The notes under the pieces were generated by a model, which was not told where the DNA came from, made no database searches, and saw nothing but the letters and a program-made list of their open reading frames with translations. Positions 1,400 through 56,688 of a stretch of DNA of 64,000 nt are shown piece after piece. The translations under genes were made by a program, and so were the position numbers. Each line of letters begins with the position of its first letter. The stretch's first letter is position 1. This DNA comes from an uncultured Candidatus Saccharibacteria bacterium (lineage in GTDB: Bacteria > Patescibacteriota > Saccharimonadia > Saccharimonadales > Saccharimonadaceae), in assembly GCA_964600285.1 (NCBI GenBank), contig CAZRIZ010000001.1, positions 188 through 64,187 of the forward strand, written 5' to 3'.

Positions 1400-2854
1400 T
1401 CAACCCCCCCAGGGGTCGGAGATGGGCTCATCACTGAGCCCGTCTAGCCCTGGTTCCACCGAGGGTGGTTCCAGGGGATAGGGCTCCGGCGCTGGAGGGC
1501 CAGGATCAATTACCTGGACGGTGGGCGCCGGAGTCGGCTTTGGCGTTACCGGTGCCGGGGTCGCAGGAACTGCGGTCGGCACAGCCGTTGGAGCCGGGGT
1601 CGCCGGCGGCGCAGTCACGGGGACTGCAGTCGCCGACGGGGGCTCCGTCGACGCCGGTTCCGAAGGCGGCGGGGCGGTGGGTTTACCTGTAGGGTGAACC
1701 CATTCGCCCGGATCGCTCGGCTTCGGTTCCGGCGTGGGCTTTGGCGTCGGCTCCGGAGTTGGCTCCGGAGTCGGCTCTGGGGTGGGGGTGGGGACGACAG
1801 GCGGTTTTTTCCGCTTGCAAGGATCTTCGGGGCGGATGATGTCCATCCCGTCGACCTTGATTCCGCCTTCCAACACAGTGGCTGGGTCGTTGGGGTCGGC
1901 GTAAAGCCGAACCACCAACTCCAGCCACTTGTCGGAGTCCAGGAACACTTCGACTGTCCCGTCCGGGAGCAGTCTAGTGTTCCAAGTGGTGGCGTGCCGG
2001 AAGACAGGGACTTCTTTTAAAGCTCCGTCTTCATAACCCCAACGGACTTCGATCTCCCTGCGGAGTTCGTCGTCCGTGCCGGGGTAGCACGCATTGCCGT
2101 GAATCGCTAGGAAGCGATTCAATGGCAGTCCGCCCGCAGTTAACTCAGCGACCGCATGGGCCACGAAGTCCTCGCGGGTCAGCTGGTGGAGCTCGTAAAG
2201 AGCATCCCACCAGGAGGGATTGTCCTCCTCAAAGGCCACTGCCAGTGCTTCGTTGGTGCTGTCGAAGGCCTGATTGTCGGACGAACTACGGAGTACATCA
2301 TCCCTGAAGTGGGAGATGTACTCCTGCTTGCCCGCCATTTTACTGACGGGCCAACCCTGCCGACTGAAGCCTGCGAAGGCTTCGGGATTGGAGTGGTCAC
2401 CTGACCAGTCTTCGTTAATGAAAACTGGCTCAGTCCACTCCCCGTTCAAGGTTACCCACGCCGCGGGTTGCGGGGTGGGAACTTGGGTCGGTACCACCGT
2501 TGGCGGTGCGGTCACAGGGACTGCGATCGCCGACTGCGGTTCCGCCTCGTCGGCCGGCACTGCCGGCGGTGGAGCTGGAGCCTTAGTGGGCTCCGGAGTT
2601 GCCGGTGCCGGGGTCGCGGGGACCTCGGTCGGCTTCGCCGTTGGAACCGGTGTCGGAACCTGAGTCGGTTCCGGAGTCGCCGGTGGTTCCGTTACTGGAA
2701 CCTCAGTCACCACGACTTCCGCCGTAGCTGTCGGGGCGTCCAGAAGCCAGTTCTGAAGAGCCGGCTTCCACACCCCAATTGTTGAGGTGGCTACCAAAAC
2801 GATAACCACCAGAACGAGTAATAACCATAGCACACCTTTTAAAAACTTTTTCAC
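1400..2854 (-). CDS. Hypothetical membrane-anchored protein with Pro/Thr/Glu/Ala-rich linkers (484 aa) in the GC-rich cassette
   Basis: GTG start at 2854 preceded by AGGAGGG. There is an N-terminal TM segment (GVLWLLLVLVVIVLVA). Long PT/PEPT low-complexity linkers flank a central domain of about 230 aa that I do not recognise. G+C is very high. Confidence 0.75.
   Translation of the reverse strand: MKKFLKGVLWLLLVLVVIVLVATSTIGVWKPALQNWLLDAPTATAEVVVTEVPVTEPPATPEPTQVPTPVPTAKPTEVPATPAPATPEPTKAPAPPPAVPADEAEPQSAIAVPVTAPPTVVPTQVPTPQPAAWVTLNGEWTEPVFINEDWSGDHSNPEAFAGFSRQGWPVSKMAGKQEYISHFRDDVLRSSSDNQAFDSTNEALAVAFEEDNPSWWDALYELHQLTREDFVAHAVAELTAGGLPLNRFLAIHGNACYPGTDDELRREIEVRWGYEDGALKEVPVFRHATTWNTRLLPDGTVEVFLDSDKWLELVVRLYADPNDPATVLEGGIKVDGMDIIRPEDPCKRKKPPVVPTPTPEPTPEPTPEPTPKPTPEPKPSDPGEWVHPTGKPTAPPPSEPASTEPPSATAVPVTAPPATPAPTAVPTAVPATPAPVTPKPTPAPTVQVIDPGPPAPEPYPLEPPSVEPGLDGLSDEPISDPWGG
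1737..1784. repeat. Four imperfect 12-nt tandem units encoding the (TPEP)n linker
   Basis: GGCTTTGGCGTC / GGCTCCGGAGTT / GGCTCCGGAGTC / GGCTCTGGGGTG. On the minus strand these encode ...PTPEPTPEPTPEPTPKPTPEP... Confidence 0.7.
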
Positions 2855-2875
2855 AGTTTTCCCTCCTATAGCCTA

Positions 2876-3775
2876 TCACCCGTGGATTGTGTCCAAGGGC
2901 GTGATGAAGGGCCGAACCAAATCGTCCCTTATTCTCAGTGCTCCTCCAAACGTGAAGAGTACGCTGAGGATGATGACCCAGCCGACAATCAGCCACCTGG
3001 CTGATTTGCTGAGCCGGGCCTTGGCAATTTTAATTGCCAAGAAAGTGCCCAACACTGAAAGGATGGCTCCTAACAGCATTGACACCCAATTGTGGGGAAG
3101 ATTTAGCTGCAGGTTGTTCGCCACACCATCGGCGTGGTCAAGCATCTGCCAGCTAGCCAACCCAACGCAAACTATCAGGATTGCGCTGGTTAGTCTAGTG
3201 GTGACGTCGATTTTGTCTCCGAGTTTCCTCAGAGACAGAAAACCGATCACCAAGCTCGCCACGACGACTGCGTAGCATGCCAGCACGGGCAAGATGCGCA
3301 TGCCGCCAAGGATACCAACGACAGTGACGAGAATTGCCACTATCAACAGTGCCCACTTCACCTTTTTCCAAAGACTTTTTTTAGCCTTTGGAGCCGGCGC
3401 CCCCTCTTCAGGAGGATGTGGGGCGAGGGGTGTCTCGGGAGCGGGCGGGGGAGGTGGCGTTAAAAGCACTAACTCCTGGTCACGCAACTCCCGAAGGAGT
3501 GTGAACACCGGGTCCGTCAACGGAACTCCAGCGTCCACTAGGCACTTTCGGGCACCGGGGTAACCGGCTCTGCCCGAGGGTCCTACCTTATCAGGGACGG
3601 GTTTACTTTCTCTGACGAGCACGGCCACCGCTTCTGCGCGCATTTGCGCACGAAGCTCGCCTGCCCGCCGACGGTCCTCCGCCGGAACAGTTGCCGTTAC
3701 CGGCACTGCGGGGTCGGGTGTTGTTGTCTCTGGGCTAACGCCCAGTAAGGGCCAAAGTTTCTTAAAAACAGCCAT
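2876..3775 (-). CDS. Hypothetical polytopic membrane protein (299 aa) in the GC-rich cassette
   Basis: ATG at 3775 preceded by AGGAGGG. The N-terminal part is soluble and Pro-rich (PPPPPAPETPLAPHPPEEGAPAP). It is followed by about 5-6 hydrophobic helices. I recognise no family. Confidence 0.7.
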   Translation of the reverse strand: MAVFKKLWPLLGVSPETTTPDPAVPVTATVPAEDRRRAGELRAQMRAEAVAVLVRESKPVPDKVGPSGRAGYPGARKCLVDAGVPLTDPVFTLLRELRDQELVLLTPPPPPAPETPLAPHPPEEGAPAPKAKKSLWKKVKWALLIVAILVTVVGILGGMRILPVLACYAVVVASLVIGFLSLRKLGDKIDVTTRLTSAILIVCVGLASWQMLDHADGVANNLQLNLPHNWVSMLLGAILSVLGTFLAIKIAKARLSKSARWLIVGWVIILSVLFTFGGALRIRDDLVRPFITPLDTIHG

Positions 3776-13889: not shown

Positions 13890-14658
13890 GCTTGTGCCAA
13901 AAAAATACCTTGGCCAACACTGGCTAAAAGATCGGTCAGTCTTGGACAGTATTGTTGAGTTTGCTGGAGTGTCAGAAGCTGATACTGTTCTGGAAATCGG
14001 TCCGGGTTTGGGGACTTTGACCAGTGCCTTACTGAGACGTGCTGGCAAAGTGTTGGCGGTTGAATATGATTCGGATTTGGCAATAAAACTCCCAGCGCAG
14101 TTTCCAGGAAAAAATTTAGAGGTTATCCCTGGTGATATTTTGCAGTTTGACTTGAGTGTGCTTCCAAAAGAATACAAAGTCGTGGCTAATTTACCATATT
14201 ATATTACGTCTAAAATTATTATGTTTCTACTGGCAAGCAAAAATCGGCCAGCGACGATTACTGTTTTGGTACAAAAAGAAGTTGCTGAACGAATAGCGCA
14301 GGTGGGTGGTTCTAGCATCTTGGCTCTCGCTGTCGAAAACTGGGCAGTTGCGGAATTGGGCCAAGTTGTGCCAGCGGAATTATTTACGCCCCCACCACAG
14401 GTGGACTCGCAAGTAATCAAGCTAACAATGAGGTCCGAGCCGATAGCTTTGGACGAAAAGGCTTTTATGCGCGTAGTAAAAGCCGGCTTTAGTGAAAAGC
14501 GAAAGAAGTTACGCTCGTCGCTTTCTGGCGGTCTGGCCATCTCGGTTTCGGAGGCTGAGTCAGTTCTAGGCAGTGCAGGGATTGACCCTAACAAACGTGC
14601 TCAGGAGTTAAGCTTCGATGATTTTTCGCGTTTAGTTGAAGCGCTCCATAACAGATGA
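13837..14658 (+). CDS. rsmA: 16S rRNA (adenine1518/1519-N6) dimethyltransferase RsmA/KsgA
   Basis: KKYLGQHWL...VLEIGPGLGTLT...NLPYYI. The start is ambiguous. The ATGs at 13837 and 13852 overlap the upstream gene, while the GTG at 13894 begins right after its stop codon. Confidence 0.9.
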   Translation: MEVGQMQSPTPKQQGGIKLVPKKYLGQHWLKDRSVLDSIVEFAGVSEADTVLEIGPGLGTLTSALLRRAGKVLAVEYDSDLAIKLPAQFPGKNLEVIPGDILQFDLSVLPKEYKVVANLPYYITSKIIMFLLASKNRPATITVLVQKEVAERIAQVGGSSILALAVENWAVAELGQVVPAELFTPPPQVDSQVIKLTMRSEPIALDEKAFMRVVKAGFSEKRKKLRSSLSGGLAISVSEAESVLGSAGIDPNKRAQELSFDDFSRLVEALHNR

Positions 14659-14670
14659 TAAAATAAGCCT

Positions 14671-16227
14671 ATGAAAAGCACTCTCTATATAACAACGGCA
14701 ATTCCCTATGTCAACGCCAAGCCACATATTGGCAATGCGCTAGATTACCTTTATGCCGATATTTGGGTGCGATACCATAAAAGAGCAAACCCTAGTATTA
14801 AATTTTCAGTTGGAACAGATGAACACGGCAACAAGATAGCCCGCAAGGCAGCTGAGCTTGGGATGACTCCCCAAGAGTTTGTTGATCAAAATTATGGTAA
14901 CTTTCAAATTTTGATGGACAAAGTCGGGGCTGGTTACACTAACTTTGTTCGTACGACCGACGGTCATCATGTTGGTGCCGTACAATATATCTGGACTAGG
15001 CTAAAAAAATATCTCTACAAAGCTAACTATAATGGCTGGTATTGTACGGGTTGTGAGCGGTTTTTTACTGATGCCGAGGCGTCGGATAACGAAGGCATCT
15101 GTCCCGATCACCAAAGGCCGTTAGAACACTTAGAAGAAGAAAATTATTACTTCAAGGCAAGCGAATTTTCTGAACGTATTCGTCAAGCGGTAGAATCTGG
15201 CGAGATGAAGATCGTGCCAGAAATGCGCAAAAATGAGTTCCTAAACTTAATTAAAGACGGCTTGAGCGATGTATCTGTATCGCGCCCGAGTAAAAATTTA
15301 GCTTGGGGGATTCCCGTGCCGAATGATCCTGATCAGGTTATGTATGTTTGGCTAGATGCTCTGTCAAATTATATTACTGGCGTGGGCTACCCAGACCAAT
15401 TAGGTTGGGACGAAATCTGGCCAGCTGATGTCCAAGTTATAGGTAAAGACATTCTGCGTTTTCATGCTGGGTTATGGCCAGCGATGTTGTTGGCGCTAGA
15501 CCTACCGCTGCCGAAGATACTGTTGGCGCACGGTCATATCCACGTTAGTGGAGTTAAAATGAGCAAATCACTAAACAATGTAATCGATCCTATAGAAGTT
15601 ATCGATAACTATGGTCGTGACGCCTTTCGCTATTATTTCTCACGTCACATACCAACTCAGGATGACGGAGATTTCACCTGGGAAAAATTTGAGACGGCTT
15701 ATAACTCAGAGTTAGGCAATGACTTGGGTAATTTAGTTCAGCGTGTAGCAAAAATGATTGAAAAATACCAAGCTGGCGTTGTAGCCGATGTTACCGAGAC
15801 AAGTTATGACGAAAACAGTTACATTGAAGCGATGAGAAATCTCCGTTTTGATCAGGCAATTGACGAAGCCTGGTCGTTTGTTCATAGTCTGAATAAATAC
15901 ATCGATTCAGTTAAACCGTGGGAGATTGCTAAACGTATTGACCAAGATATTGAGGCCAAGCATCACCTCGAGGAAGTGTTGCGCCACTTGGCTAATGGGC
16001 TTGTCCAGATGGCGAGATTGTTGGAGCCATTTATGCCAGATACGGCTGATAAAATAAAACAAATCTTTGCTGATGGCGTAATCAGTCAGGACGACCAGGC
16101 TTTATTGCCGCTTTTCCCTAAAATTTACATTCACACCAAGGATCCTCGGGCTAATTCAGCGTCTGCGCCAACTCCACCTGTCGCCGATTCCTTGCCACAG
16201 GAAAACCAACCAAGTGCGTCTAATTGA
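14671..16227 (+). CDS. metG: Methionyl-tRNA synthetase
   Basis: A class I HIGN-type motif (PYVNAKPHIGNA), the KMSKS motif and a CxxC...C zinc knuckle are present. Confidence 0.95.
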   Translation: MKSTLYITTAIPYVNAKPHIGNALDYLYADIWVRYHKRANPSIKFSVGTDEHGNKIARKAAELGMTPQEFVDQNYGNFQILMDKVGAGYTNFVRTTDGHHVGAVQYIWTRLKKYLYKANYNGWYCTGCERFFTDAEASDNEGICPDHQRPLEHLEEENYYFKASEFSERIRQAVESGEMKIVPEMRKNEFLNLIKDGLSDVSVSRPSKNLAWGIPVPNDPDQVMYVWLDALSNYITGVGYPDQLGWDEIWPADVQVIGKDILRFHAGLWPAMLLALDLPLPKILLAHGHIHVSGVKMSKSLNNVIDPIEVIDNYGRDAFRYYFSRHIPTQDDGDFTWEKFETAYNSELGNDLGNLVQRVAKMIEKYQAGVVADVTETSYDENSYIEAMRNLRFDQAIDEAWSFVHSLNKYIDSVKPWEIAKRIDQDIEAKHHLEEVLRHLANGLVQMARLLEPFMPDTADKIKQIFADGVISQDDQALLPLFPKIYIHTKDPRANSASAPTPPVADSLPQENQPSASN

Positions 16228-40672: not shown

Positions 40673-42502
40673 GTGAAATCTAAACACGAGTTAAAAAATA
40701 ACGCCCCCAAGGCTAAATCAAAGAAGCCATTTTGGCACATTATTTCAAATAAAGAATTAGTCAAGCAAGCTAATGAGCTTGAAAAATCCGTGGTTAGTGG
40801 AACCGAACGCTTTGTTATCCGAAAATGGCAAAAGATTCGTGAAGTTAGAAACCAGATTATTATCTGGTCTTCGTTGCTAGTTACGGTACTTTTGGCGCTA
40901 GGGCTACAAATATTTTTTAGTCAGAGAGGCTATCGTTCTCTTACGATGGTCGGTGGTGGAACTTATCGCGAAGGTGTCGTTGGCAAAATAGACTCCTTAA
41001 ACCCTCTCTATGCTATGACTGAGTCGGAAAAATCGGCTAGCTACTTGATGTTCTCGCGTCTTTTAAGCTACGACTCAACTGGTAGCCTGAAGAACGATTT
41101 AGCTAAGTCTTTAACCGTTTCTGGTGACGGTACGACCTATTCTGTGACAATTCGTGATGACGTTTATTGGCATGATGGCGAAAAACTAACGGCAAAAGAT
41201 ATTAAGTTTACAATTGACTTAATTCAGAGCGCTACTGTTAAGTCCTCGCTTGGTAGCATGTGGCGGGGTGTTAAGGTTCAGCAGGTTGGCGATTACTCGA
41301 TCGAATTTATATTACCAGCGCCTTACGGTCCGTTTCGCCCAGCTCTAACATTTTCAGTTTTACCAGAACATATTTTGGGCCAAGTTGATTTAGCAAATTT
41401 GCGAGAAGTGGACTTCTCGTCAGCGCCAGTTGGCTCTGGTCCGCTACGTTTTCAATCTTTAAGAAACGTTACGATTAGTGGTGGCTATAAACAGGTGTTG
41501 CATCTGACGGTTAATAATAGCTACTATCAACCACCATCTAGATTAAACCGTTTTGAGCTTCACGCTTTTGCTAGTCAAGCTGACTTACGCCAGTCGATTA
41601 ATGACGGCGAGATTAATGCCGGGGCTAACGTTGCCTTGTCTGATATTGAAGATCAGTCAAAATGGACTGTGCAGGACTTGGTCCTGCAAAATGGCGTCTT
41701 TGCTTTTTTCAACAATGACAGCGAAAGTTTGAAAAATGCCAATGTTAGAAAGGCCCTTCGCTCATCGTTAAATTTGGCAGCGATAAGAAATCAATTTAAT
41801 TCTGTAAACGGTAACCATCGAGCGCTAGATTTGCCAATTTTGCCAGAACAGTTAGGGGACTATAAACCGGAAATTTCGAAGTGGTTTGACTTAGAATCAG
41901 CTACGAAAACTCTTCAGGCACAGGGATATAAGTTAAACAATGGAAAATGGCAAGATAATTCGGGGCAGAACCTGAAGCTTGATGTAGTGGCGGTTAAGGA
42001 TTCTGGCTACGTTCAACTAGCAGAGTTGCTAACTGAGGCTTGGCGAGATTTCGGTATAGAAATCGATTTAAACATGGTTGACTTGAACGACCAAAACATT
42101 GATTTCGTACGTAATTTCTTGCAACCGCGCTACTATGACGTTTTAATTTACGAAATTGCTTTAGGTTCTGATCCGGACCAGTTTGCCTATTGGCACTCAT
42201 CACAAAAATTCGCTAATGGCTTGAATCAGGCTAATTATTCCGATTCTGTATCCGACGCGCTCTTATCCACGGCTCGTGCTAGTAATGACCTAGACTTGCG
42301 CCAAGCCAAATACAAAAACTTTGTTCAGCGTTGGTTGAGCGATGCCCCAGCCGTTGCCTTAGTTCGGTCAAACTTTCGTTATGCTTTAGCAAATAATACT
42401 CAGGCCGGTCCATCAAGTAGCGTGTTGGCCAACCCACAAACACGCTACTCAGCCCTTAGTGATTTCTTAGTCAGTCAGCGTCTAGTTTACACTACACCTT
42501 AG
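40673..42502 (+). CDS. ABC transporter substrate-binding protein, family 5 (OppA/DppA-like), membrane-anchored
   Basis: GTG start, though the exact start is uncertain. After an N-terminal TM segment there is an SBP_bac_5-like region (YREGVVGKIDSLNPLYA...WHDGEKLTAKDIKFT...). Confidence 0.85.
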   Translation: MKSKHELKNNAPKAKSKKPFWHIISNKELVKQANELEKSVVSGTERFVIRKWQKIREVRNQIIIWSSLLVTVLLALGLQIFFSQRGYRSLTMVGGGTYREGVVGKIDSLNPLYAMTESEKSASYLMFSRLLSYDSTGSLKNDLAKSLTVSGDGTTYSVTIRDDVYWHDGEKLTAKDIKFTIDLIQSATVKSSLGSMWRGVKVQQVGDYSIEFILPAPYGPFRPALTFSVLPEHILGQVDLANLREVDFSSAPVGSGPLRFQSLRNVTISGGYKQVLHLTVNNSYYQPPSRLNRFELHAFASQADLRQSINDGEINAGANVALSDIEDQSKWTVQDLVLQNGVFAFFNNDSESLKNANVRKALRSSLNLAAIRNQFNSVNGNHRALDLPILPEQLGDYKPEISKWFDLESATKTLQAQGYKLNNGKWQDNSGQNLKLDVVAVKDSGYVQLAELLTEAWRDFGIEIDLNMVDLNDQNIDFVRNFLQPRYYDVLIYEIALGSDPDQFAYWHSSQKFANGLNQANYSDSVSDALLSTARASNDLDLRQAKYKNFVQRWLSDAPAVALVRSNFRYALANNTQAGPSSSVLANPQTRYSALSDFLVSQRLVYTTP

Positions 42503-42523
42503 TTCTTATATAATTTCAGTAAT

Positions 42524-42610
42524 GCGCGCGTGGCGGAATTGGTAGACGCGCTAGCTTCAGGAGCTAGTAAGAGCAATCTTGTGGAAGTTCAAGTCTTCTC
42601 GTGCGCACCA
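42524..42610 (+). tRNA. tRNA-Leu (anticodon CAG), long variable arm, encoded CCA
   Basis: The acceptor stem is GCGCGCG/CGTGCGC. The anticodon stem is CTAGC/GCTAG with loop TTCAGGA. The T-arm is GTTCAAGTC and the tRNA is 87 nt long. An upstream promoter reads TTTACA-17-TATAAT. Confidence 0.95.
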
Positions 42611-42633
42611 AAGAAATCGTAGAACGGAAATTG

Positions 42634-42656
42634 TCGCCCTTTCGGGCGATTTTTTC
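42634..42656. terminator. Bidirectional intrinsic terminator
   Basis: TCGCCC-TTTC-GGGCGA is followed by TTTTTT on the plus strand and preceded by an A-rich tract. It sits between tRNA-Leu and the convergent gene 42706-43278. Confidence 0.75.
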
Positions 42657-42705
42657 TTTGGTCGTGCGCAGCGCGAACCAGATGTTTTTTCGCTGTCTGC
42701 TTTAT

Positions 42706-43278
42706 CTAACGTATATTCTTAATAAGAAGAAAAACTGCCTGCGCTTGACTGATATTTGCACTAAAGATACCCAGTCCACCACTCATTTTGTTAGCCACTG
42801 CCGATAACCGCCAAGCCTCCGGCATAGCAGTTTCGCCCATAATGTGCGCTCTCAGCATTTTGTACTTAGGGTCGTTAATTGGCGACTCCCACATATACAA
42901 GTAGTTCAAGTCCTCCAAAAAATCTTTGGTTTTTGCTGCAGTTTTTACGATATTTGGTAATGCGTCAAAAGACTTATTGTTGCAAGCCCACATAAATGTG
43001 TCGTGGTCTGTGTTGACCGAGCCAATAACCTCTATGTTGGCGACCAGGTCTTTCCCATCAGGTCTACCAGAGAAAGTTACTGTACCGTCAAGCAAGTCAG
43101 CACCCCAGCGACCACCTTCAGAGCCAATACCATACTTTTCGTGCAAGTCGGCGTTTTGCTTTTGCAGCTCGTCAAAACTTTGCTGTATAAAATCCTCTAA
43201 ACCCTCTGGGGTTTTGAGCCTCGCCTTATCTGTTAGGCTATTTTGATCAAAACTGAATTCGTAAGTATCTGATGACAT
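42706..43278 (-). CDS. Hypothetical protein (190 aa)
   Basis: I prefer the ATG at 43278 (MSSDTYEF...). A TGtATAAT extended -10 (minus strand, TATAAT at 43293-43288) lies 9 nt upstream. There is no TM segment and no recognisable family. Confidence 0.65.
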   Translation of the reverse strand: MSSDTYEFSFDQNSLTDKARLKTPEGLEDFIQQSFDELQKQNADLHEKYGIGSEGGRWGADLLDGTVTFSGRPDGKDLVANIEVIGSVNTDHDTFMWACNNKSFDALPNIVKTAAKTKDFLEDLNYLYMWESPINDPKYKMLRAHIMGETAMPEAWRLSAVANKMSGGLGIFSANISQAQAVFLLIKNIR

Positions 43279-43317
43279 AATGCCTAGATTATACAATTTA
43301 CAACACAAAAGGAAAAA

Positions 43318-43337
43318 CCGGCTACGTTTGTAGCCGG
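43318..43337 (-). terminator. Intrinsic terminator of the 115-aa gene
   Basis: A perfect 8-bp stem, CCGGCTAC-GTTT-GTAGCCGG, is followed by TTTTTCC on the minus strand. Confidence 0.65.
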
Positions 43338-43347
43338 CCTATGGCGG

Positions 43348-43695
43348 TTACGCAGTCGCTGTGGCGATACGCCTCAGCGTTGCGTGATTGGTGTTGCCGT
43401 TGTTTCGGCAGCACCAGTCGTCGCCACATTTGTGGAGGTGAAACTGAGCCTCAAGCTCAGTTCCATATTGATCCTCGCCACGAACGGTGACGCTTCCGTC
43501 ACCGTTGGGCGAGCAGTTTCGGGGGAAGAGCAGGATTACTTGGTGAATCCCGTCACCAATTCTCCTCAGGAATGCCAGGTTAGCGCTTCCGCTTCGGTTT
43601 CCCTCCGCGGTTAAGGCGAGAGCCTTTTTTAGGTGATGTTCCTCATATTCTCTGAGTGTTGTCACCTGGATTCCTTTTCCTAGTTCTGTCGCCAT
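43348..43695 (-). CDS. Hypothetical small protein (115 aa), GC-elevated
   Basis: GGAGGG RBS. The promoter TTGACT-16-TATAAT (43801-43774, minus strand) has the same A-tract and -35 context as the cassette promoter at 3956. A hand count gives 34/60 G+C at 43381-43440. Confidence 0.6.
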   Translation of the reverse strand: MATELGKGIQVTTLREYEEHHLKKALALTAEGNRSGSANLAFLRRIGDGIHQVILLFPRNCSPNGDGSVTVRGEDQYGTELEAQFHLHKCGDDWCCRNNGNTNHATLRRIATATA

Positions 43696-43902
43696 GATTC
43701 GTCCCTCCAGTATATAAAAGCTCTATCGCCAATGACGATAGGCACGCGTTGGCTTGCACCAACGATACTTCTTATTATACAGTAAAATGCAAAAAAGTCA
43801 ATAGGCTTAAGGCTTTCTTGTTAACCCATCGCACGTCAACTATCGCCCTAGTAATAGATTTATTTAGGCAGTATTTTCAAGTTTGGGGTAAAATTAGGGT
43901 AT

Positions 43903-44895
43903 ATGAATTTAAGTAAGCCTAAAAAATCCAACAAGCCATATTTGTTGATTTGCTTGCTTTTGCTAGCTGTTATTTCGGGCGGTTACTTATATCACAAAAA
44001 AGACAAGCTAGTAGTCGCTATTTATTCCGCACTTGAAGAAACCTTAGTTCCAAACCAAGTAAAATTCACGCCCAAGCCTCCGTTACCAGTTTGGCCAGTT
44101 GACGCGTCGAGCTATTATGGTCGAAACATCATGGTCTACGACACGGTAAACGAGTGGGCTTTATTGCGTAAGGACGTTGATAGCTCTGTGCCGATTGCGT
44201 CATTGACTAAAATCATGACGACGATCTTAGCGATTGAGCACCTAGAAGACTTACGGGCCAGCGTTAAAATTGATGGCGCCGTATTGTCAAATCTTTGGGC
44301 TAAAAATGCCTCAATGGCTGGGTTTGCGTCTGGTGAAACAGTCAAGTATCTCGATCTACTTTATGCAACTGTTCTACCGAGCGGAGGTGAGGCGGCTACG
44401 ATTTTGGCTAATGAGGTTTCTGTTCGGAAGGGAGACTTCATCAAGCTAATGAACCAAAAAGCCCATGAATTAAAAATGACTAATACTGTTTTTACCAATC
44501 CAACTGGCCTAGATAGCTCCACCCAGGTGTCGTCAGCTCGAGATATGGTTAGTTTATTGCGTTATGCTCTGAGGAGCCCGATTTTTCGCCAAATTTTTAC
44601 TACTCGTGAATATGTGACTACGCCTACGCCACAGCACCCGAATGGGATTAAAATGCACAGCACCGTGCTATCACGAATCAGCGAGTCTGAGCAACAAGAC
44701 TTTAAGATACTTGGCGGAAAATCAGGCACGACCTATGGAGCTGGTCTGTGTTGGGCAGTATTGGCTGAGGTGGAAGGGCGCGAGTTTATAGTCGTTACAT
44801 TAGGCGCGCCATTAGATAATTTAGCAAACCCAACCCTCTATCAAAAAAGAGATGTTTTGAGCTTGGCTGGAACGATAGTCGAGATAGATAAGTAG
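43903..44895 (+). CDS. D-alanyl-D-alanine carboxypeptidase (peptidase S11, PBP5-like)
   Basis: N-terminal TM segment plus the SxxK (ASLTK), SGG (SxN-like) and KSGTT (KTG) motifs. Confidence 0.88.
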   Translation: MNLSKPKKSNKPYLLICLLLLAVISGGYLYHKKDKLVVAIYSALEETLVPNQVKFTPKPPLPVWPVDASSYYGRNIMVYDTVNEWALLRKDVDSSVPIASLTKIMTTILAIEHLEDLRASVKIDGAVLSNLWAKNASMAGFASGETVKYLDLLYATVLPSGGEAATILANEVSVRKGDFIKLMNQKAHELKMTNTVFTNPTGLDSSTQVSSARDMVSLLRYALRSPIFRQIFTTREYVTTPTPQHPNGIKMHSTVLSRISESEQQDFKILGGKSGTTYGAGLCWAVLAEVEGREFIVVTLGAPLDNLANPTLYQKRDVLSLAGTIVEIDK

Positions 44896-44954
44896 TTCCT
44901 CGCTTTGTTCAAATTAGTAAATTGGTGTAAAATAGTTGCTGACGCTTGCTTTAT

Positions 44955-45041
44955 GCGCACATGGCGGAATTGGTATACGCGCTACCTTGAGGTGGTAGTG
45001 GGAGCAATCCTGTGGAGGTTCAAGTCCTCTTGTGCGCACCA
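44955..45041 (+). tRNA. tRNA-Leu (anticodon GAG), encoded CCA
   Basis: The acceptor stem is GCGCACA/TGTGCGC. The anticodon stem is CTACC/GGTAG with loop TTGAGGT. It has a long variable arm and is 87 nt long. The promoter TTGTTC-17-TAAAAT lies upstream. Confidence 0.95.
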
Positions 45042-45066
45042 AATCACTCAACCGAGTGATTTTTTA
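45042..45066 (+). terminator. Intrinsic terminator after tRNA-Leu(GAG)
   Basis: AATCACTC-AACC-GAGTGATT followed by TTTTT. Confidence 0.7.
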
Positions 45067-45134
45067 GTGGGTAATTTTGTTTATCATATCAGGGCGTTTT
45101 GGCTAATCCAAGCTTAATACACGGGCACATTTTA

Positions 45135-45163
45135 TTGAGTTTTAAGGCAATTTATGTTATAAT
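45135..45163 (+). promoter_or_regulatory. Promoter with an extended -10
   Basis: TTGAGT (45135-45140), 17 nt including TGt, TATAAT (45158-45163). The predicted start site near 45170 gives a leader of about 180 nt before the ATG at 45349. Confidence 0.55.
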
Positions 45164-45239
45164 GATAATATTGTGGTCTTGGTGGAGCTACTAGCATGTT
45201 AAATGTCAAGTTAGATTGATAATGCCGTATTTTAATCTG

Positions 45240-45287
45240 TCTCTGGAATAAGCTTCGTGTCTATTGATTTGAAGCTTATTCTGGAGA
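45240..45287 (+). ncRNA. Long leader hairpin (17-bp stem, 14-nt loop) upstream of the ORFan at 45349
   Basis: TCTCTGGAATAAGCTTC (45240-45256) pairs with GAAGCTTATTCTGGAGA (45271-45287). That gives 15 Watson-Crick pairs plus 2 adjacent G-U pairs, and the G-U pairs exist only in a plus-strand RNA. No U-run follows. Confidence 0.55.
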
Positions 45288-45348
45288 TAGACTCTCCAAG
45301 AAAGCTGGCGAGCTGAACGCAAACAGCCTTAAGCTGTCAGGAGGTAAT

Positions 45349-45825
45349 ATGTTTATTAGGGTAGCCCTTAACTCCGATGATCAGTTTTTCTTAAGATACT
45401 TATATCGCGAAAAGGAGTACCCGCGGGAGTTGAATTTTTCAAGAATTCCGTTTTTTAGCGATAGCGTTCGAAAATACGACAATGACAGTAAGCCGTTCGC
45501 CGATTTTCTAGAATGTTACCAGAAAATCACAATCATTCACTGTATAGATGGTGCTAAAGTTGTGATTCCGGCTGTAGTATCTGTATGGCTCGGTCACAAA
45601 TGCTATCTCGAATTGTGGCCAACTAGTGAGGAGCTTGCGGCCCACAAGACGAACTTTCAACCTACGGCGAACCTTCTTGCATCGAGCACTATTTATGTAT
45701 CCGGCAGCAAGCCCATGTTCGCACGAGACGAGCTAGAAAGGTCGTTCCGCACAGTACTCGATGTATTTACGGGAGGAATGTACCAAATCGCCAGAGAGCG
45801 GTATCGTGTGCGTTTAAGCCCCTAA
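45349..45825 (+). CDS. Hypothetical protein (158 aa)
   Basis: CAGGAGGT RBS. The product is soluble and I recognise no family. Confidence 0.65.
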   Translation: MFIRVALNSDDQFFLRYLYREKEYPRELNFSRIPFFSDSVRKYDNDSKPFADFLECYQKITIIHCIDGAKVVIPAVVSVWLGHKCYLELWPTSEELAAHKTNFQPTANLLASSTIYVSGSKPMFARDELERSFRTVLDVFTGGMYQIARERYRVRLSP

Positions 45826-45837
45826 CTTGATGAACAC

Positions 45838-45863
45838 AACCCCGGCCACATGTCGGGGTTTTG
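45838..45863 (+). terminator. Intrinsic terminator
   Basis: AACCCCGGC-CACAT-GTCGGGGTT followed by TTG. Confidence 0.7.
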
Positions 45864-45911
45864 CAGTATATAGCGCTTTGTGGTATTATTCTCTAGCACT
45901 TACAAGGTTTT

Positions 45912-45988
45912 GGGCGACTAGCTCAGTTGGCTAGAGCGTCTCGTTTACACCGAGAAGGTCGGGGGTTCGAGCCCCTCGTCGCCCACCA
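45912..45988 (+). tRNA. tRNA-Val (anticodon UAC), encoded CCA
   Basis: The acceptor stem is GGGCGAC/GTCGCCC. The anticodon stem is TCTCG/CGAGA with loop TTTACAC. The T-arm is GGTTCGAGCCC. The promoter TTGCAG-17-TATTAT lies upstream. Confidence 0.95.
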
Positions 45989-46185
45989 CAGCAAAGAAAC
46001 CTTTAGTTTCCGTCCCCAAGGCGGATTTTTTGATTTAAGTTTCGGGTTGAGCGAGCTACTTGCTGAAGCATGTTCCTCAATTTTTCGCAGTAAAGCTGGT
46101 TTATTTTGTCAGTAAGTTTTATTGCAAAAACCTTAATAATATGAGATAATCTTAGAACCTAAAAAGGAGGGAGGAGGACTTTAAA

Positions 46186-46671
46186 TTGAAGTATTTACAC
46201 GGAGTTGAAATTGCTCGTCCTGGTGGGATTGATAACTTGGCTAAGGAGCTAGTTAGAGGATCGTGGCATGAATTGAGCCGTTTCATGGATGAACTAGGGA
46301 TGCAACTTCTTGGCCAATCCATAACAGACAGGCAAAGAGATCGTCCCATTCTAGCTAGTCTGGGAAAAAAGGCTAGTGAAAGTCTGTTGCTGTCGGCTAG
46401 GTTGATAACAACAACTAGGTCGGCTCGAAAAGTGCGTTATGAGCTTGTGGATTTTGCTAAGCCAGTCTCGCGCTTGCGCTATGACGCTATCTTGAGATTC
46501 TTGAATTTGCTCAGTCTTGGTGTGCATCAAGATAGGCGTTTCAGAAAGAAGAATGGTAGTCTGGCACTATTCCATTTGAACCAAGCTAGGGTGGCGGTTG
46601 GTTACATGTTACGCATATCAAAGAAGCATCTTGATTTCAGTCGAGTTCCATTAATTGACTTCAATGAATGA
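46186..46671 (+). CDS. Hypothetical basic protein (161 aa)
   Basis: TTG start preceded by a very strong RBS (AAAAAGGAGGGAGGAGG). It is predicted to be helical, is Arg/Lys-rich, and matches no family I recognise. Confidence 0.65.
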   Translation: MKYLHGVEIARPGGIDNLAKELVRGSWHELSRFMDELGMQLLGQSITDRQRDRPILASLGKKASESLLLSARLITTTRSARKVRYELVDFAKPVSRLRYDAILRFLNLLSLGVHQDRRFRKKNGSLALFHLNQARVAVGYMLRISKKHLDFSRVPLIDFNE

Positions 46672-46692
46672 CTGCGGTATTAAATCGCTCTT

Positions 46693-46718
46693 GCCCGAAG
46701 TTGTTGCTTCGGGCTTTT
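46693..46718 (+). terminator. Intrinsic terminator
   Basis: GCCCGAAG-TTGTTG-CTTCGGGC followed by TTTT. Confidence 0.7.
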
Positions 46719-46758
46719 AATTTTAACTTGGTAGGGATATAATTTAGTTGTCACTTTT

Positions 46759-46835
46759 GGGAAATTAGCTCAGTTGGCTAGAGCGCAGCATTCACATTGC
46801 TGAGGTCACAGGTTCAAGCCCTGTATTTCCCACCA
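46759..46835 (+). tRNA. tRNA-Val (anticodon CAC), encoded CCA
   Basis: The acceptor stem is GGGAAAT/ATTTCCC. The anticodon stem is CAGCA/TGCTG with loop TTCACAT. The T-arm is GGTTCAAGCCC. Confidence 0.95.
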
Positions 46836-46966
46836 AGAAAGAACAATTTTCGAAGAAGTCGCCCACTGGGGTGGCTTTTTGATTTACGTTATGTACGTAA
46901 GCATAAGCTCTCTGGTTCACAGTCATGATATAATATAGTTAGAATAATACAAGGAGCATAACTTCA

Positions 46967-47521
46967 ATGGCAACACAACCACAACCACCAGTCACCCCAC
47001 CAACAGAGGGCGCTGATACGCAGTATGGTCCCGCACCAGTCGATCAGAATACACCGTATCAGCAACAGCCCGTTAACCAACAATATTTCGCTCAACCACA
47101 AGCTGCACCAGTTCAATATGTTGTTATGGCACAATCACTCAAGGGCGTCCGTGGTTGGCTCCTATTCTTCACAGTTTCTTTTGCCATCGCTGGTTTGGGT
47201 TACATAGGCACCTTCTTCGCCTCGATGGGTGACGACAACACAAATATTGTTAACCTTTTGTTTATGCCAGTCTTGGCCGGTCTTTCACTTGCGGCGACTG
47301 TGACAATTGCAATGGAAAAGAAGATTGGTAAATGGCTTGGAATTGCCGTATGTGCTACTGTCGCCGTTCACGGTGCGATTAATACGATTGTACAGTCTTC
47401 CGCAAGTGGTGAGACTGCGCCTATGATAATGTCTGGCATTGTCGCTGGAATAGTCTCGTCTGGGTTGATGGCGTTATACTTCTTTGTTTCACGCCGAGTC
47501 AAAGAAACTCTTATTAAATAA
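46967..47521 (+). CDS. Q/P-rich N-terminus, multi-TM membrane protein, paralog 1 (184 aa)
   Basis: MATQPQPPVTPPTEG...QNTPYQQQPVNQQYFAQPQ...RGWLLFFT, followed by about 4 TM helices and ending SRRVKETLIK. It may be DUF2569-like, but I hold that only with low confidence. Confidence 0.75.
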   Translation: MATQPQPPVTPPTEGADTQYGPAPVDQNTPYQQQPVNQQYFAQPQAAPVQYVVMAQSLKGVRGWLLFFTVSFAIAGLGYIGTFFASMGDDNTNIVNLLFMPVLAGLSLAATVTIAMEKKIGKWLGIAVCATVAVHGAINTIVQSSASGETAPMIMSGIVAGIVSSGLMALYFFVSRRVKETLIK

Positions 47522-47553
47522 GGCTTACTTTGGGTTACTAAGTTGAACTCGAA

Positions 47554-47605
47554 ACAGCCGGCCTAGTGCCGGCTGTTTGATTTATGGCCATAAATATGAT
47601 AAAAT
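47554..47605 (+). promoter_or_regulatory. Terminator-promoter module, copy 1
   Basis: The hairpin ACAGCCGGC-CTAGT-GCCGGCTGT plus a T-run overlaps TTGATT (47577-47582), 17 nt, TAAAAT (47600-47605). Confidence 0.6.
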
Positions 47606-47678
47606 AGAAAGATAGCACATTGCTGATGTCACAGTCATGATATAATGTGGTCAGAATAATACAAGGAGCACAACTTTA

Positions 47679-48260
47679 ATGGCAACACAACCACAACCAC
47701 CAGTCACTCCGTCAACGGGTGGTACTGACGCACAGGCCAATACGCAATATGGTCCCGCACCAGTCGATCAGAATACACCGTATCAGCAACAGCCCGTCAA
47801 TCAACAACATTTCGCTCAACCACAAGTTGCGCCAGTTCAGGGCGCTGTTACGGCACAGCCTAGAAAGGGTATTCGGGGCTGGCTATTATTCTTTACGATT
47901 ATGTTTGTCATAGCTGGTTTTAGTACCATCACCAATATTTTCATCTCAATAGGCAATGATGTAAATATCGCCAACCTTTTATTCGGGCTAATCTTTGCCG
48001 GTCTTTCTATTGCGGCGGCCGTAACGATTACAATAGAAAAGAAGATCGGTAGATGGCTTGCGATTGCTGCCTGGGCTTGTCGTATTGTCCAAACTATATT
48101 CGACCTCATCTTCAACTTTGATATTACTGTTGAGGCTTCCAATAATAATCTAAGCGTACCCTTGCTGATCTTTGGCATTGTTTTTGCAATGGCTTTACTC
48201 GCTCTCCCACTACTTTATTTCTTAACTTCACGCCAAGTCAAAGAAACGCTTATTAAATAA
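47679..48260 (+). CDS. Q/P-rich N-terminus, multi-TM membrane protein, paralog 2 (193 aa)
   Basis: The N-terminus (MATQPQPPVTP...YGPAPVDQNTPYQQQPVNQQ) and C-terminus (SRQVKETLIK) are near-identical to paralog 1. The TM core has diverged. Confidence 0.75.
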   Translation: MATQPQPPVTPSTGGTDAQANTQYGPAPVDQNTPYQQQPVNQQHFAQPQVAPVQGAVTAQPRKGIRGWLLFFTIMFVIAGFSTITNIFISIGNDVNIANLLFGLIFAGLSIAAAVTITIEKKIGRWLAIAAWACRIVQTIFDLIFNFDITVEASNNNLSVPLLIFGIVFAMALLALPLLYFLTSRQVKETLIK

Positions 48261-48292
48261 GGCTCACTTTGGGCTGCTAAGTTGAACCCGCA

Positions 48293-48369
48293 ACAGTCGG
48301 CCTAGTGCCGGCTGTTTGATTTATGGCCATAAATATGATAAAATAGAAGGATAGCACATTAATAATGTG
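48293..48369 (+). promoter_or_regulatory. Terminator-promoter module, copy 2, plus a palindrome at the start site
   Basis: It carries the same hairpin, then TTGATT (48316-48321), 17 nt, TAAAAT (48339-48344). This is followed by the perfect palindrome CACATT-AAT-AATGTG (48355-48369) just upstream of the RBS of gene 48392. Confidence 0.6.
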
Positions 48370-48391
48370 ATAGGCAAAAGGAGGGGTTTGT

Positions 48392-49021
48392 ATGAAAACA
48401 AACAATGGCCTGACAGAGTCGAATACAGACAACATTGTTCTGAGTGGGCTTGAGTCCAAAATACTTGTAGCTGTAGTTAAGCGAGCCATCAGAGAGTTTT
48501 GTCCTGGTGTTACTTACGGAACCTTTATTTTGGACGTTCAACGCTGGAACCATAAGGCGGAGAATGTTCTGCGATTCGATCTGCCATGGGGCTGTTTGTT
48601 TAAGGATCCACTTGAGGGCGAAGTAACTAATTTTTCTGTTTCAGCTAAATCAGCGATTGATTTGTTTCTTTGCGACGAAGCTTACGATGAAGTCTCGACT
48701 GGTATCTATGCTTTTGGTGAGAGCAAGGTCTTGGTTGCCAACACCTCTTCAGAACGGTTCCTTGCTTCATTCTACGGAAATTTTCCACCTAATGAGGGTG
48801 GTATAGAGTGGAAGGAGGAAAAGAAACTGTGGAGTGGTGCTGATTCTGTCTTGGCGGTGGTCGCCGAAACCTTGATGCATTTGCGACCACATGATTCTAG
48901 ACTATCTAACGAAGAACGTCGTGCCCTGTTCCAATATGGCGCTCCGTTTGAGATTAGGAGTTTCATTAGGGGTGCGCTTAGGGCTGAAGGCTGGAACGCC
49001 CATTATTCCTCTGACGCATAG
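48392..49021 (+). CDS. Hypothetical protein (209 aa)
   Basis: AAGGAGGGG RBS. The product is soluble and I recognise no family. Confidence 0.65.
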   Translation: MKTNNGLTESNTDNIVLSGLESKILVAVVKRAIREFCPGVTYGTFILDVQRWNHKAENVLRFDLPWGCLFKDPLEGEVTNFSVSAKSAIDLFLCDEAYDEVSTGIYAFGESKVLVANTSSERFLASFYGNFPPNEGGIEWKEEKKLWSGADSVLAVVAETLMHLRPHDSRLSNEERRALFQYGAPFEIRSFIRGALRAEGWNAHYSSDA

Positions 49022-49076: not shown

Positions 49077-49135
49077 ATTGGGTTAACGCTTGTTTTACTC
49101 TTGGTTTTGTGATAGAGTATACCGATTGTAATTAT

Positions 49136-50959
49136 ATGAAAAAGTTTACAGCCGATAAAATTCGCAATATCGCTATTATTGCTCACGTTGATCACGGCAA
49201 GACCACGCTAGTTGATGGTCTGCTTAAGCAATCGCATACTTTTCGTGATAACCAATCTGAAATGTCGCAAAAACTAATCATGGATTCTGGCTCTCAAGAG
49301 GCTGAGCGTGGTATTACGATTACAGCCAAGAATACGGCAGTTTATTACCAAGATTATAAAATTAACATTGTAGATACGCCTGGGCACGCTGATTTTGCTA
49401 GCGAGGTTGAGCGTACGCTTAATATGGCTGACGGCGTGTTGCTACTAGTTGACGCCCAAGAGGGCGCTATGCCTCAAACCAAATTTGTGCTGTCTAAAGC
49501 CCTAGAGTTAGGGCTGACGCCAGTTGTGGTTGTAAATAAAATCGACAAGCCTGGCCGAGAGATTGATCAAGTAGAGGATAATTTAGCGGATTTATTTCTA
49601 GAATTGGCCACGACTGAAGAGCAACTACAATATCCGGTCTATTATGCTGTTGGGCGTGACGGTAAGGCCTGGAATAATATTCCAAACTCTACAGATGAGC
49701 CAGCTGATTTGACGCCAATATTTGAAGCAATTATTCATGATATCCCCGCACCAACTGTTTCTGACGGAGCTTTTCAAATGCAAGTGGCGAGTTTGAACTA
49801 CGATAGTTTCTTAGGTAAATACTCAATCGGACGGATTAAGCGAGGTGTGGCCAAGGCTGGTATGCCGGTAGCCTTAATCAACCGCACGGGCGATATTCAC
49901 AAAACTAAAATTGACAAATTATTCACTTTTCACGGTTTAAATAAAGAAGAAGTCTCAGAGGCTGACGCTGGCGATGTCATCGCGTTAGTCGGCGTTGGTC
50001 AGAGTGAAATTGGCGACACTATTGCCGATCTTGCCAACCCAGAAGCTTTGCCAGTTATAAAAATTGATCCACCAACCATTAGTATGTACTTAGGACCAAA
50101 TACCAGTCCGATGAAAGGTCGCGAGGGTGAATTTACGACTTCACGACAGTTAGGCGAGCGTTTGGTGCGTGAACTTGAAACTAATGTGGGGCTGAAGGTC
50201 GTCGACACTGGCATCGGTTTTACGATTTCTGGTAGGGGCGAGTTGCATCTTAGTGTCTTGATAGAAGCAATGCGTCGTGAAGGCTATGAGTGCGAAGTTG
50301 GTCGTCCCGAAGTTATCACTATCACCGAAGATGGTGTCACTAAAGAGCCAATTGAAGAATTTTATATTGAAATAGCGCCAGAATTTATGGGTGTAGTCAG
50401 TCAAGAGCTTGGTTCACGCTATGCCGAACTTATTAAGCAGGAGAGTTTGACGTCAAACAATATTCGCTTAGTCTATAAAATCCCTACTAGAGCTTTGATT
50501 GGTTTGAGGAGTTTGTTGCTTACTTTGACTAAAGGAACGGCAGTTATGAGTGCTATACCACTTGGTTACGAACCAGTTGGAGAGAAATTCACTTCCAATA
50601 GAACCGGTGTTCTGATTGCTTTTGAGGCTGGCTTGTCGACTGCTTATGCGCTAGAGAGTGCAAAAACCCGTGGTGAATTATTTATTGGACCAGCCACAGA
50701 GGTTTATGCGGGTATGATCGTTGGCCAAAATAATCGCTACGAAGACTTAGAGATTAACGTTTGCAAAGAAAAGCACTTGACTAACATGCGATCGAAATCT
50801 TCTGACGGCATGGTACAGTTAAGCCCTTATCGCAAATTAAGCCTAGAACAATCAATTGATTTTTTGAATGTCGATGAACTACTAGAAGTTACGCCAAAAA
50901 GTTTGCGCCTGAGAAAAAAGATTCTCGACCCAATCTTGCGCAAGCGAGCTGGTAAATAG
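49136..50959 (+). CDS. typA: Translational GTPase TypA/BipA
   Basis: [19 protein letters not shown]...DTPGHADF...NKID. The ATG at 49136 gives the canonical N-terminus. Confidence 0.95.
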
Positions 50960-56301: not shown

Positions 56302-56688
56302 TCAGCGGTTTGAATGACGCCTACGAACGTAAGCCTTGACCGCCTCGGTGGTGCTTTTGGCACGAGCTACCATATCGCTTTGTTTGACGCCACGGGGGAT
56401 TCCCGTTTTAGGCGTTGATCCCCTGACGGTGTTAAACCGCCTGGCGTCGAATGGCTGGCTGAACCCAATTAAGTATATGTCGGCAGGATGGCCCTCGTGC
56501 TCTTCGACCCAAGCGACGCGATAAATTGCTCCCTCCACCAGAACGTCTTCGCCGTCGTCTTCACCAGTATAACTTCTGCCATTATACTGCAACTTGAGGC
56601 CGTCGAACCCATAGTCCGACGATGACGTTTTGCCTCGGAATATTTTTGGTAAAACATTCCTAAACCACTCTTTAAGATTACTACCCAT
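56302..56688 (-). CDS. Hypothetical small protein (128 aa), GC-elevated
   Basis: GGAGGG RBS with a TTGATT...CATAAT promoter upstream. A hand count gives 35/60 G+C at 56341-56400. I recognise no family. Confidence 0.6.
   Translation of the reverse strand: MGSNLKEWFRNVLPKIFRGKTSSSDYGFDGLKLQYNGRSYTGEDDGEDVLVEGAIYRVAWVEEHEGHPADIYLIGFSQPFDARRFNTVRGSTPKTGIPRGVKQSDMVARAKSTTEAVKAYVRRRHSNR

Follow-up and report, generated by a model that had tools for sequence, protein, structure and literature searches.

How do protein-coding genes come to lie between the transfer RNA (tRNA) genes of a dense, reduced genome? We considered this question for a 6.5-kb locus (positions 42524-49021) in a window of 64,000 nucleotides, that is, the whole stretch of DNA analyzed, from an uncultured Candidatus Saccharibacteria bacterium. 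The window belongs to contig C1 of an assembly of 717 kb in 35 contigs that is 92% complete (hereafter G000). The locus contains four tRNA genes interleaved with eight protein-coding genes, between a gene for a solute-binding protein (SBP5) and typA, and an initial annotation from the sequence had read it as a place where cargo genes accumulated after integrative elements lost their mobility genes. Comparison with relatives supported this reading in part. The tRNA anchors are conserved, the genes between them vary from lineage to lineage, and non-conserved genes lie beside tRNAs more often than other genes across the genome. The SBP5-typA interval is thus probably a lineage-variable hotspot of gene turnover seated on a tRNA cluster. 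Its anchors are the following:

40673..42502, plus strand: left anchor, membrane-anchored solute-binding protein SBP_bac_5 (SBP5; Pfam E = 2.9e-47)
42524-42610, plus strand: tRNA-Leu(CAG), sole copy in the genome; by consensus scan, a promoter-like site (TTTACA-17-TATAAT, 42486-42514) and a terminator-like hairpin (42633-42650)
44955-45041, plus strand: tRNA-Leu(GAG), sole copy
45912-45988, plus strand: tRNA-Val(UAC), sole copy; promoter-like site at 45860-45889, terminator at 46009-46025
46759-46835, plus strand: tRNA-Val(CAC), sole copy; perfect TATAAT at 46738-46743, terminator at 46853-46880
49109..50959, plus strand: right anchor, translational GTPase TypA/BipA (Pfam)

ARAGORN and the Rfam tRNA model agreed on all four tRNAs, with the positions and anticodons given in the initial annotation, and an Rfam scan of 42.3-49.3 kb matched nothing else. 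The genome carries 39 tRNA genes, such that four within 6.5 kb compare with ~0.35 expected. Since each of the four is the single copy of its isoacceptor genome-wide, they are essential core genes and were not delivered by an element. The locus is real and not a misassembly because four other, independent public assemblies are 99.99-100% identical to it, and an independent gene caller run on another assembly predicted the same open reading frames (ORFs), of 190/200, 115, 330, 158, 161, 184, 193, and 209 aa. Further occurrences of this strain are GCA_025563055.1, ERZ27236863, SRR11845636, and DRR784972. The longest intergenic gap is 307 bp.

We searched 40 relatives for typA and fetched the DNA upstream; G001 and G002 are congeners, and L032 is a metagenome contig at congener level. 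A TypA orthologue (E ≤ 1e-138) is present in 37 of the 41 genomes searched. The uvrC-secG-SBP5 neighborhood is found family-wide, and the backbone running from uvrC-SBP5 to typA is kept in G004, G011, G012, G014, G016, and L032; G002 retains the uvrC-SBP5 side, without typA. The interval between SBP5 and typA varies 25-fold in length, from 0.26 to 6.6 kb:

G012, 263 bp: only tRNA-Leu(GAG)
G004, 1.8 kb: tRNA-Leu(GAG), a Zeta_toxin gene, and a HAD hydrolase
G016, 2.6 kb
G011, 4.0 kb: ORFans and an ORF with resolvase-type helix-turn-helix (HTH) domains
G014, 4.4 kb: a flavin adenine dinucleotide (FAD) oxidase and an extracytoplasmic function (ECF) sigma factor
G000, 6.6 kb: the locus described here

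The closest comparisons are the most telling. In L032, whose TypA fragment is 86% identical to TypA of the window, SBP5 is followed by Leu(GAG), 11 bp, Leu(CAG), 12 bp, Val(UAC), TraX, Val(CAC), an o209 homologue, and typA, all within 2.0 kb. The tRNA order in G002 is that of L032, with other fillers (a NUDIX-like gene, an AlkD-like gene, a 155-aa ORF, TraX, two ORFs of ~110 aa, and an inverted o184 homologue), and G001 has TraX, Val(CAC), an o209 homologue, and typA. Genes between the tRNAs therefore differ completely among the three congeners and the metagenome relative, and the interval contents are unrelated by all-against-all BLASTP and Pfam. The tRNAs, on the other hand, are shared: Leu(CAG) of G000 is 93-95% identical to Leu(CAG) of L032 and G002, and Val(CAC) is 100% identical in four genus-level genomes. 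Because the tRNA sequences group by isoacceptor, the anchors are orthologous within the genus and the swapped order of Leu(CAG) and Leu(GAG) in G000 is real. An anticodon switch as the source of the swap was ruled out by the same clustering of the tRNA bodies. The alignment across relatives thus agrees with the initial annotation, which had expected conserved tRNA anchors set against variable cargo; likewise, the ORFans do not recur in the same order in relatives, and none received a housekeeping assignment.

We noted three further features of the relatives. The slot of G004 (L006 10343-11233) encodes a Zeta_toxin-family kinase (E = 5.9e-33) beside the HAD hydrolase, and no obvious epsilon-type antitoxin ORF was called in the interval. 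The G002 assembly (two contigs, 97% complete) has no TypA/BipA orthologue anywhere, the best match (2.3e-33) being another GTPase. The same genome is without ddl at the syntenic place and has rarA directly after the variable slot.

Next, we turned to the genes between the tRNAs in G000:

42706..43278, minus strand: o200 (190 aa in the independent call), Pfam DUF6882
43348..43695, minus strand: o115, GC-rich strict ORFan; promoter at 43801-43774, GGAGGG Shine-Dalgarno sequence, terminator at 43340-43315
43903..44895, plus strand: dacA-like low-molecular-weight penicillin-binding protein (Peptidase_S11, 330 aa) with an N-terminal membrane anchor
45135..45348, plus strand: promoter and structured leader of o158; TTGAGT-17-TATAAT with TG, leader of ~180 nt
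45349..45825, plus strand: o158, strict ORFan; GGAGG Shine-Dalgarno sequence, 5th percentile codon fit
46186..46671, plus strand: o161, strict ORFan; TTG start, strong Shine-Dalgarno sequence, terminator at 46693-46714
46917..48376, plus strand: tandem duplication of a promoter-gene-terminator unit, with o184 at 46967-47521 and o193 at 47679-48260
48392..49021, plus strand: o209, small Saccharibacteria-restricted family; motifs GTFILDGQ and GRFL.SFY

Seven of these genes had been described as lacking a recognizable family. For o115, o158, and o161 this holds, each matching only itself among 5.8 billion (5.8e9) proteins; the 190-aa protein is a DUF6882 member, and o184/o193 and o209 belong to small lineage-restricted families. 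Distribution was assessed with a concatenated query against 150 genomes of the family, covering 95 genera. Homologues of o200, o115, and o158 were found in G000 only, and o161 had two marginal matches elsewhere (E = 2.7e-4 and 0.008). By composition, o115 and o158 are the only outliers; o200, o161, o184, o193, o209, and dacA are within the normal range.

The 2.3 kb between the two Leu tRNAs hold o200, o115, and dacA. The o200 protein matches DUF6882 with E = 1.4e-21 and 77.3 bits (gathering cut-off 23.9) over model positions 1-141 of 142. Among 301 genomes sampled across the phylum DUF6882 occurs in one, G000 (the control, Corynebacterium glutamicum, was positive), and we found no close relative of o200 among the genome contigs searched, nor any in the family genomes other than G000 (n = 150). 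From this distribution the gene was most likely acquired from outside the phylum. By our own reading, its leader behind a TATAAT box would be short or absent. The literature on DUF6882 amounts to a single incidental mention, and a single-sequence AlphaFold2 (AF2) model of o200 (predicted local distance difference test, pLDDT, 36) was unusable and was kept out of the fold search. The GC-elevated gene that had been noted in the region is o115: its GC content is 54% against a genome mean of 43%, which places it at the 98th percentile for GC and the 2nd for codon fit.

The dacA-like carboxypeptidase was likewise correctly recognized at the outset. It matches Pfam PF00768 (E = 1.9e-37, 129.4 bits, cut-off 27.6) and NCBIfam, and it has SxxK and K[TS]G motifs, visible in the translation as SLTK and KSG; the middle motif reads SGG instead of SxN, and its activity is predicted. 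Homologues in G001 and G002 are 50-55% identical and lie in another genomic neighborhood, and a few more genomes also carry dacA. Since the flanks of the congeners' dacA map to contig C12 of G000, dacA has been relocated into the tRNA locus in this genome.

Between Leu(GAG) and Val(UAC) lies o158, whose leader contains hairpin arms at 45236-45256 and 45271-45291 and folds with -64.3 kcal/mol (z = -5.5 against shuffled sequences). Neither this leader nor the o115 region matched a known RNA family in Rfam, and the o158 protein had no PDB, Pfam, PHROG, or PADLOC match. The terminator hairpin after o158 (45838-45862) has two 92%-identical 25-nt copies elsewhere in G000 (C3:35164-35188 and C3:39778-39802), which are 4.6 kb apart. 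Between the two Val tRNAs, o161 occupies the position of TraX in G001, G002, and L032; the TraX homologue of G000 is on contig C6.

The tandem duplication reported initially was confirmed as o184/o193, including promoter and terminator. The repeat period is 712-739 bp, with four repeat families (D1-D4) and 58% amino acid identity. The ratio of nonsynonymous to synonymous divergence (dN/dS) is 0.34 and dS is 0.83, hence this is an old duplication with purifying selection on both copies. By inspection, each is a membrane protein in which hydrophobic segments come after an N-terminal region rich in Pro and Gln, and the two weakly resemble DUF2569. Their family occurs in ~25 of the 150 family genomes, in arrays in some (G084), at 30-55% identity across genera. 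In 4 of 21 loci it is within 4 kb of Val(CAC); a general tRNA adjacency of the family was rejected, as any tRNA lies within 4 kb in 7 of 21 loci, about the chance level. In the o184-o193 spacer (47616-47634), just before the duplicated promoter, we noted a 19-nt piece of tRNA-Val(CAC) (tRNA positions 35-53, one mismatch), which may be a scar of the duplication junction.

The last gene, o209, is present directly upstream of typA also in G001 and L032. It is 40% identical in G001, with a weak match in G006, and has 12 relatives among 1.84 billion (1.84e9) cluster representatives, all but one in records titled Saccharibacteria or Saccharimonas. The contexts of these relatives vary, 4 of 10 being within ~400 bp of a tRNA. 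Its AF2 model is fairly confident (pLDDT 78) and has an alpha-beta-beta-alpha-beta-beta-beta topology, for which the best Foldseek match in the PDB is 3t12_C (MglB/Roadblock); this match is weak and below a safe threshold (E = 0.024, template-modelling scores 0.29/0.40). A Foldseek search of viral structures gave no meaningful match. As a long shot, a Roadblock-like fold and the conserved position next to typA might point to a regulator of that GTPase.

Is this association of changing genes with tRNAs confined to one locus? We classed all ORFs of at least 80 aa in G000 and G002 by whether they had a tblastn match in the other genome. ORFs of G000 that were unmatched in G002 were enriched within 300 bp of a tRNA (odds ratio (OR) 2.5, p = 0.007), also with the present locus excluded (OR 2.2, p = 0.025). 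The reciprocal test, on ORFs of G002 unmatched in G000, gave OR 3.2 and p = 1e-5 at 500 bp, and the enrichment near tRNAs persisted at a cut-off of 120 aa.

Taking an L032-like compact state as ancestral for the genus, we propose the following course of events. In the G000 lineage the compact tRNA cluster would have been pulled apart, and the Leu tRNAs would have swapped order. The 2.3 kb inserted between them would comprise a DUF6882 gene from outside the phylum, the GC-rich o115, and the relocated dacA; a unit of promoter, leader, o158, and terminator would have been placed between Leu(GAG) and Val(UAC); o161 would have come to stand in place of the relatives' TraX; and a membrane-protein gene of the o184 family would have been duplicated in tandem between Val(CAC) and o209. 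As most of these inserts look like self-contained promoter-gene-terminator units, the essential single-copy tRNAs could still be expressed as separate short transcripts. That each tRNA has its own promoter and its own terminator, as the initial annotation stated, was upheld in part. By consensus scan, Leu(CAG) and Val(UAC) have a promoter and three of the tRNAs a terminator, and the remaining signals look weak by eye: Leu(GAG) has a weak promoter-like site (good -10 box, poor -35) and a weak AT-rich hairpin, and upstream of Val(CAC) the -10 box is good and the -35 poor. Judging from these signals, tRNA-Leu(GAG) may also be transcribed by read-through from dacA.

How the genes arrived is a separate matter. 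Only tentatively do we suggest that arrival and reshuffling took place without a resident site-specific recombinase. Genes could have come in by DNA uptake, for which G000 has ComEC, followed by homologous or illegitimate recombination; duplication on the spot and relocation within the genome could also have contributed, and the Leu swap could have arisen by duplication of the Leu pair followed by differential loss. Genes might persist near tRNAs if the gaps between independently transcribed tRNA units are rare harmless insertion sites in a dense 0.7-Mb genome. Pointing to homology-driven rearrangement on a local scale are the o184/o193 duplication, the Leu swap, and two features of G002. One of these (L022, G002:C2, ~14600-14900, reverse strand) is a tandem repeat before the NUDIX-like gene, with 2.2 copies, 98% identical, of a 98-bp unit that starts with the last 21 nt of tRNA-Leu(CAG) and continues as a 77-nt trailer with two hairpins; the other is a fragment between Leu(GAG) and Leu(CAG) that resembles the 5' half of a tRNA-Leu.

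The main alternative is that integrase-bearing islands inserted at tRNA 3' ends and then lost their integrases and attachment (att) sites, leaving cargo behind. The enrichment of non-conserved genes beside tRNAs genome-wide, the foreign look of o115 and o200, the HTH-domain ORF in the slot of G011, and the tandem copies of the tRNA-Leu(CAG) 3' end in the homologous locus of G002 are all compatible with it. Integrase-type elements do exist in the genus, as a 7.5-kb island of 34% GC (contig mean 41%) in G002 (G002:C2:161197-169004) is headed by a tyrosine recombinase, the second in that genome, 82 bp from tRNA-Ala(GGC) and is probably an integrated element. Three tRNA calls at its far end are unusual; for one of them ARAGORN gives an anticodon of four letters, '(ataa)'. 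Against decayed elements stands the locus itself. No recombinase domain was found by Pfam in ORFs of 42.5-49.1 kb, and the gaps of ≤307 bp are too short for a recombinase remnant in the intergenic DNA. The first and last 20 nt of the four tRNAs have no att-like copy at ≤5 mismatches besides paralogous tRNAs, a repeat search likewise found none, and PHROGs matched dacA alone among the locus proteins. Single-gene units in four separate gaps would moreover require at least four independent and fully decayed integrations, and the dacA insert is a relocated resident gene. We therefore consider decayed elements unlikely, and the initial proposal of integrative elements stripped of their mobility genes found no support, there being no recombinase or remnant, no tRNA-end repeat, and no phage or plasmid homologue of the tested ORFans.

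An origin from phages or plasmids was rejected: a concatenated ORFan query, run with tblastn on 50,697 records of phages and 72,556 of plasmids, matched none of them, and the o209 family had no match in viral contigs. A shared cassette-boundary signature was also rejected, as the shared intergenic sequences are local o184/o193/o209 duplicates only and no module recurs at other places in the genome. In the G000 assembly as a whole, the serine recombinase family PF00239 had no match, and the sole match to the tyrosine recombinase family PF00589 is on contig C24. All ORFs of this ~10-kb contig have 61-69% GC; it probably entered the metagenome-assembled genome in binning, as a contaminant or as DNA of the host.

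A second alternative denies some of the strict ORFans (o115, o158, o161) the status of functional protein genes: they would have arisen by chance in inserted DNA that is non-coding or decaying, or be de novo genes of very recent origin. Their lack of homologues in 5.8e9 proteins and of any PDB, Pfam, PHROG, or PADLOC signal fits this, as does the poor codon fit of o115 and o158; all other assemblies are near-identical, so no diverged copy is available for measuring selection. Nevertheless, these ORFs are 115-161 codons long in a genome of 43% GC, each is preceded by a promoter-like site and a correctly spaced Shine-Dalgarno sequence of the GGAGG type and followed by a terminator-like hairpin, an independent gene caller predicted them, and o158 has a dedicated, highly structured leader. 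Altogether, this makes non-genes very improbable. Least probable of all is a locus that has been stable since the ancestor, with no gain or loss, in which the ORFans and the genes in the relatives' intervals are orthologues that have diverged past detection. Two observations fit this: identity of o209 to its syntenic homologues is only 34-40%, against 84-86% for TypA, and the o184 family, at 30-55% identity across genera, keeps some linkage to Val(CAC) (the 4 of 21 loci above). The spacers of 11-12 bp between three tRNAs in L032, however, leave no room for counterpart genes and largely refute this account. Also against it are the 25-fold variation in interval length, the confident unrelated families in relatives' slots (TraX, DNA_alkylation, Zeta_toxin, HAD, FAD oxidase), and the differing dacA neighborhood in both congeners.

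Several points count against a turnover hotspot supplied without a recombinase. The class of unmatched ORFs in the tRNA test mixes acquired genes with fast-evolving and possibly some spurious ORFs. The missing recombinases of G000 are weak evidence because the assembly, at 92% completeness, is also without a common Xer-like tyrosine recombinase that is present in 22 of 25 relatives searched (E ~1e-42 or better). The arrival route of each insert is something we infer, and the other assemblies of the species are all 99.99-100% identical. The status of the ORFans as genes rests on ORF length, Shine-Dalgarno sequences, promoters, and terminators. Lastly, o209, conserved in the genus beside typA, has long been in the slot, as has the o184 family, and neither is a recent gain. 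The cargo is thus not uniformly recent, as it includes o209, the o184 family (linked to Val(CAC) in several genomes), and a relocated, semi-core dacA.

We also considered what the cargo might do. PADLOC, a check that the initial annotation had proposed, returned 0 defence families for all eight proteins; Pfam and NCBIfam found no defence or toxin-antitoxin family among the locus proteins, and PDB sequence searches of five ORFans gave nothing below E = 0.07. The locus is an ordinary hotspot, with no evidence pointing to defence, toxin-antitoxin, or mobile-element function. A bolder joint claim, that tRNA spacers of Saccharibacteria are integrase-independent slots for gene capture and expression, in which genes already equipped with promoter and terminator land and are swapped, and that the DUF6882 protein, o115, o158, and o161 are host-interaction or immunity factors serving an episymbiotic life, strikes us as a long shot.

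Elsewhere in the window, adjacent genes for 484-aa and 299-aa proteins (1400-3775, minus strand) have 57-63% GC against 43% for the genome, encode Pro/Thr/Ala-rich proteins, and are the most GC-rich in the assembly after contig C24. Between ppa and rel, at 56302-56688 on the minus strand, there is a third ORFan with elevated GC (128 aa, 51%). Its promoter and those of o115 and the 299-aa gene have a TTGAC(T)TTTTTT core in common, over 14-20 nt, which probably reflects no more than a strong promoter consensus.

Taken as a hotspot, the locus shows where one reduced Saccharibacteria genus puts new genes, namely in the gaps of a once-compact tRNA cluster and, statistically, beside tRNAs. It also yields a shortlist of species-specific genes for studies of episymbiont and host: DUF6882, o115, o158, o161, and the o209 and o184 families. 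This is a known kind of genome organization in a little-studied lineage, and it reveals no new mechanism or system.

How does the locus compare with known systems? It resembles classical tRNA islands in that the inserts adjoin tRNAs, some genes look foreign (DUF6882 and the GC-rich o115), and the content differs from that of relatives; unlike those islands, it is without integrase, att direct repeats, and phage or plasmid homologues, and it consists of several single-gene units in separate gaps. With integron cassette arrays and clusters of attC sites lacking integron-integrases (CALINs) it shares a row of single-gene units at one site, but it has no attC-like boundary repeat and no IntI, and its units carry their own promoter and terminator, whereas a promoter is usually missing from integron cassettes. 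In Patescibacteria, genomic islands as well as competence genes have been reported to be common (Gios et al., 2025, mSystems, PMC12455944). Those islands are likewise horizontally acquired regions in streamlined genomes of the same phylum, with competence proposed as one route; the main text of that study has 0 mentions of tRNA and integrase, whereas here, within one genus, we find tRNA anchors and tRNA-adjacent enrichment. The closest likeness in kind is to hotspots without mobile elements, which have been explained by recombination at flanking core genes and are commoner in transformable species (Oliveira, Touchon, Cury and Rocha, 2017, Nat Commun, PMC5635113). Syntenic core flanks, content turnover, tRNA genes, and the lack of a recognizable mobile element are common to both, and ComEC in the present host fits the model of recombination at the flanks. 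The present comparison differs in being made at the level of genus and family in an uncultivated 0.7-Mb episymbiont lineage instead of among strains of one species, and the inserts lie within a formerly compact tRNA cluster, which they split into single-tRNA units.

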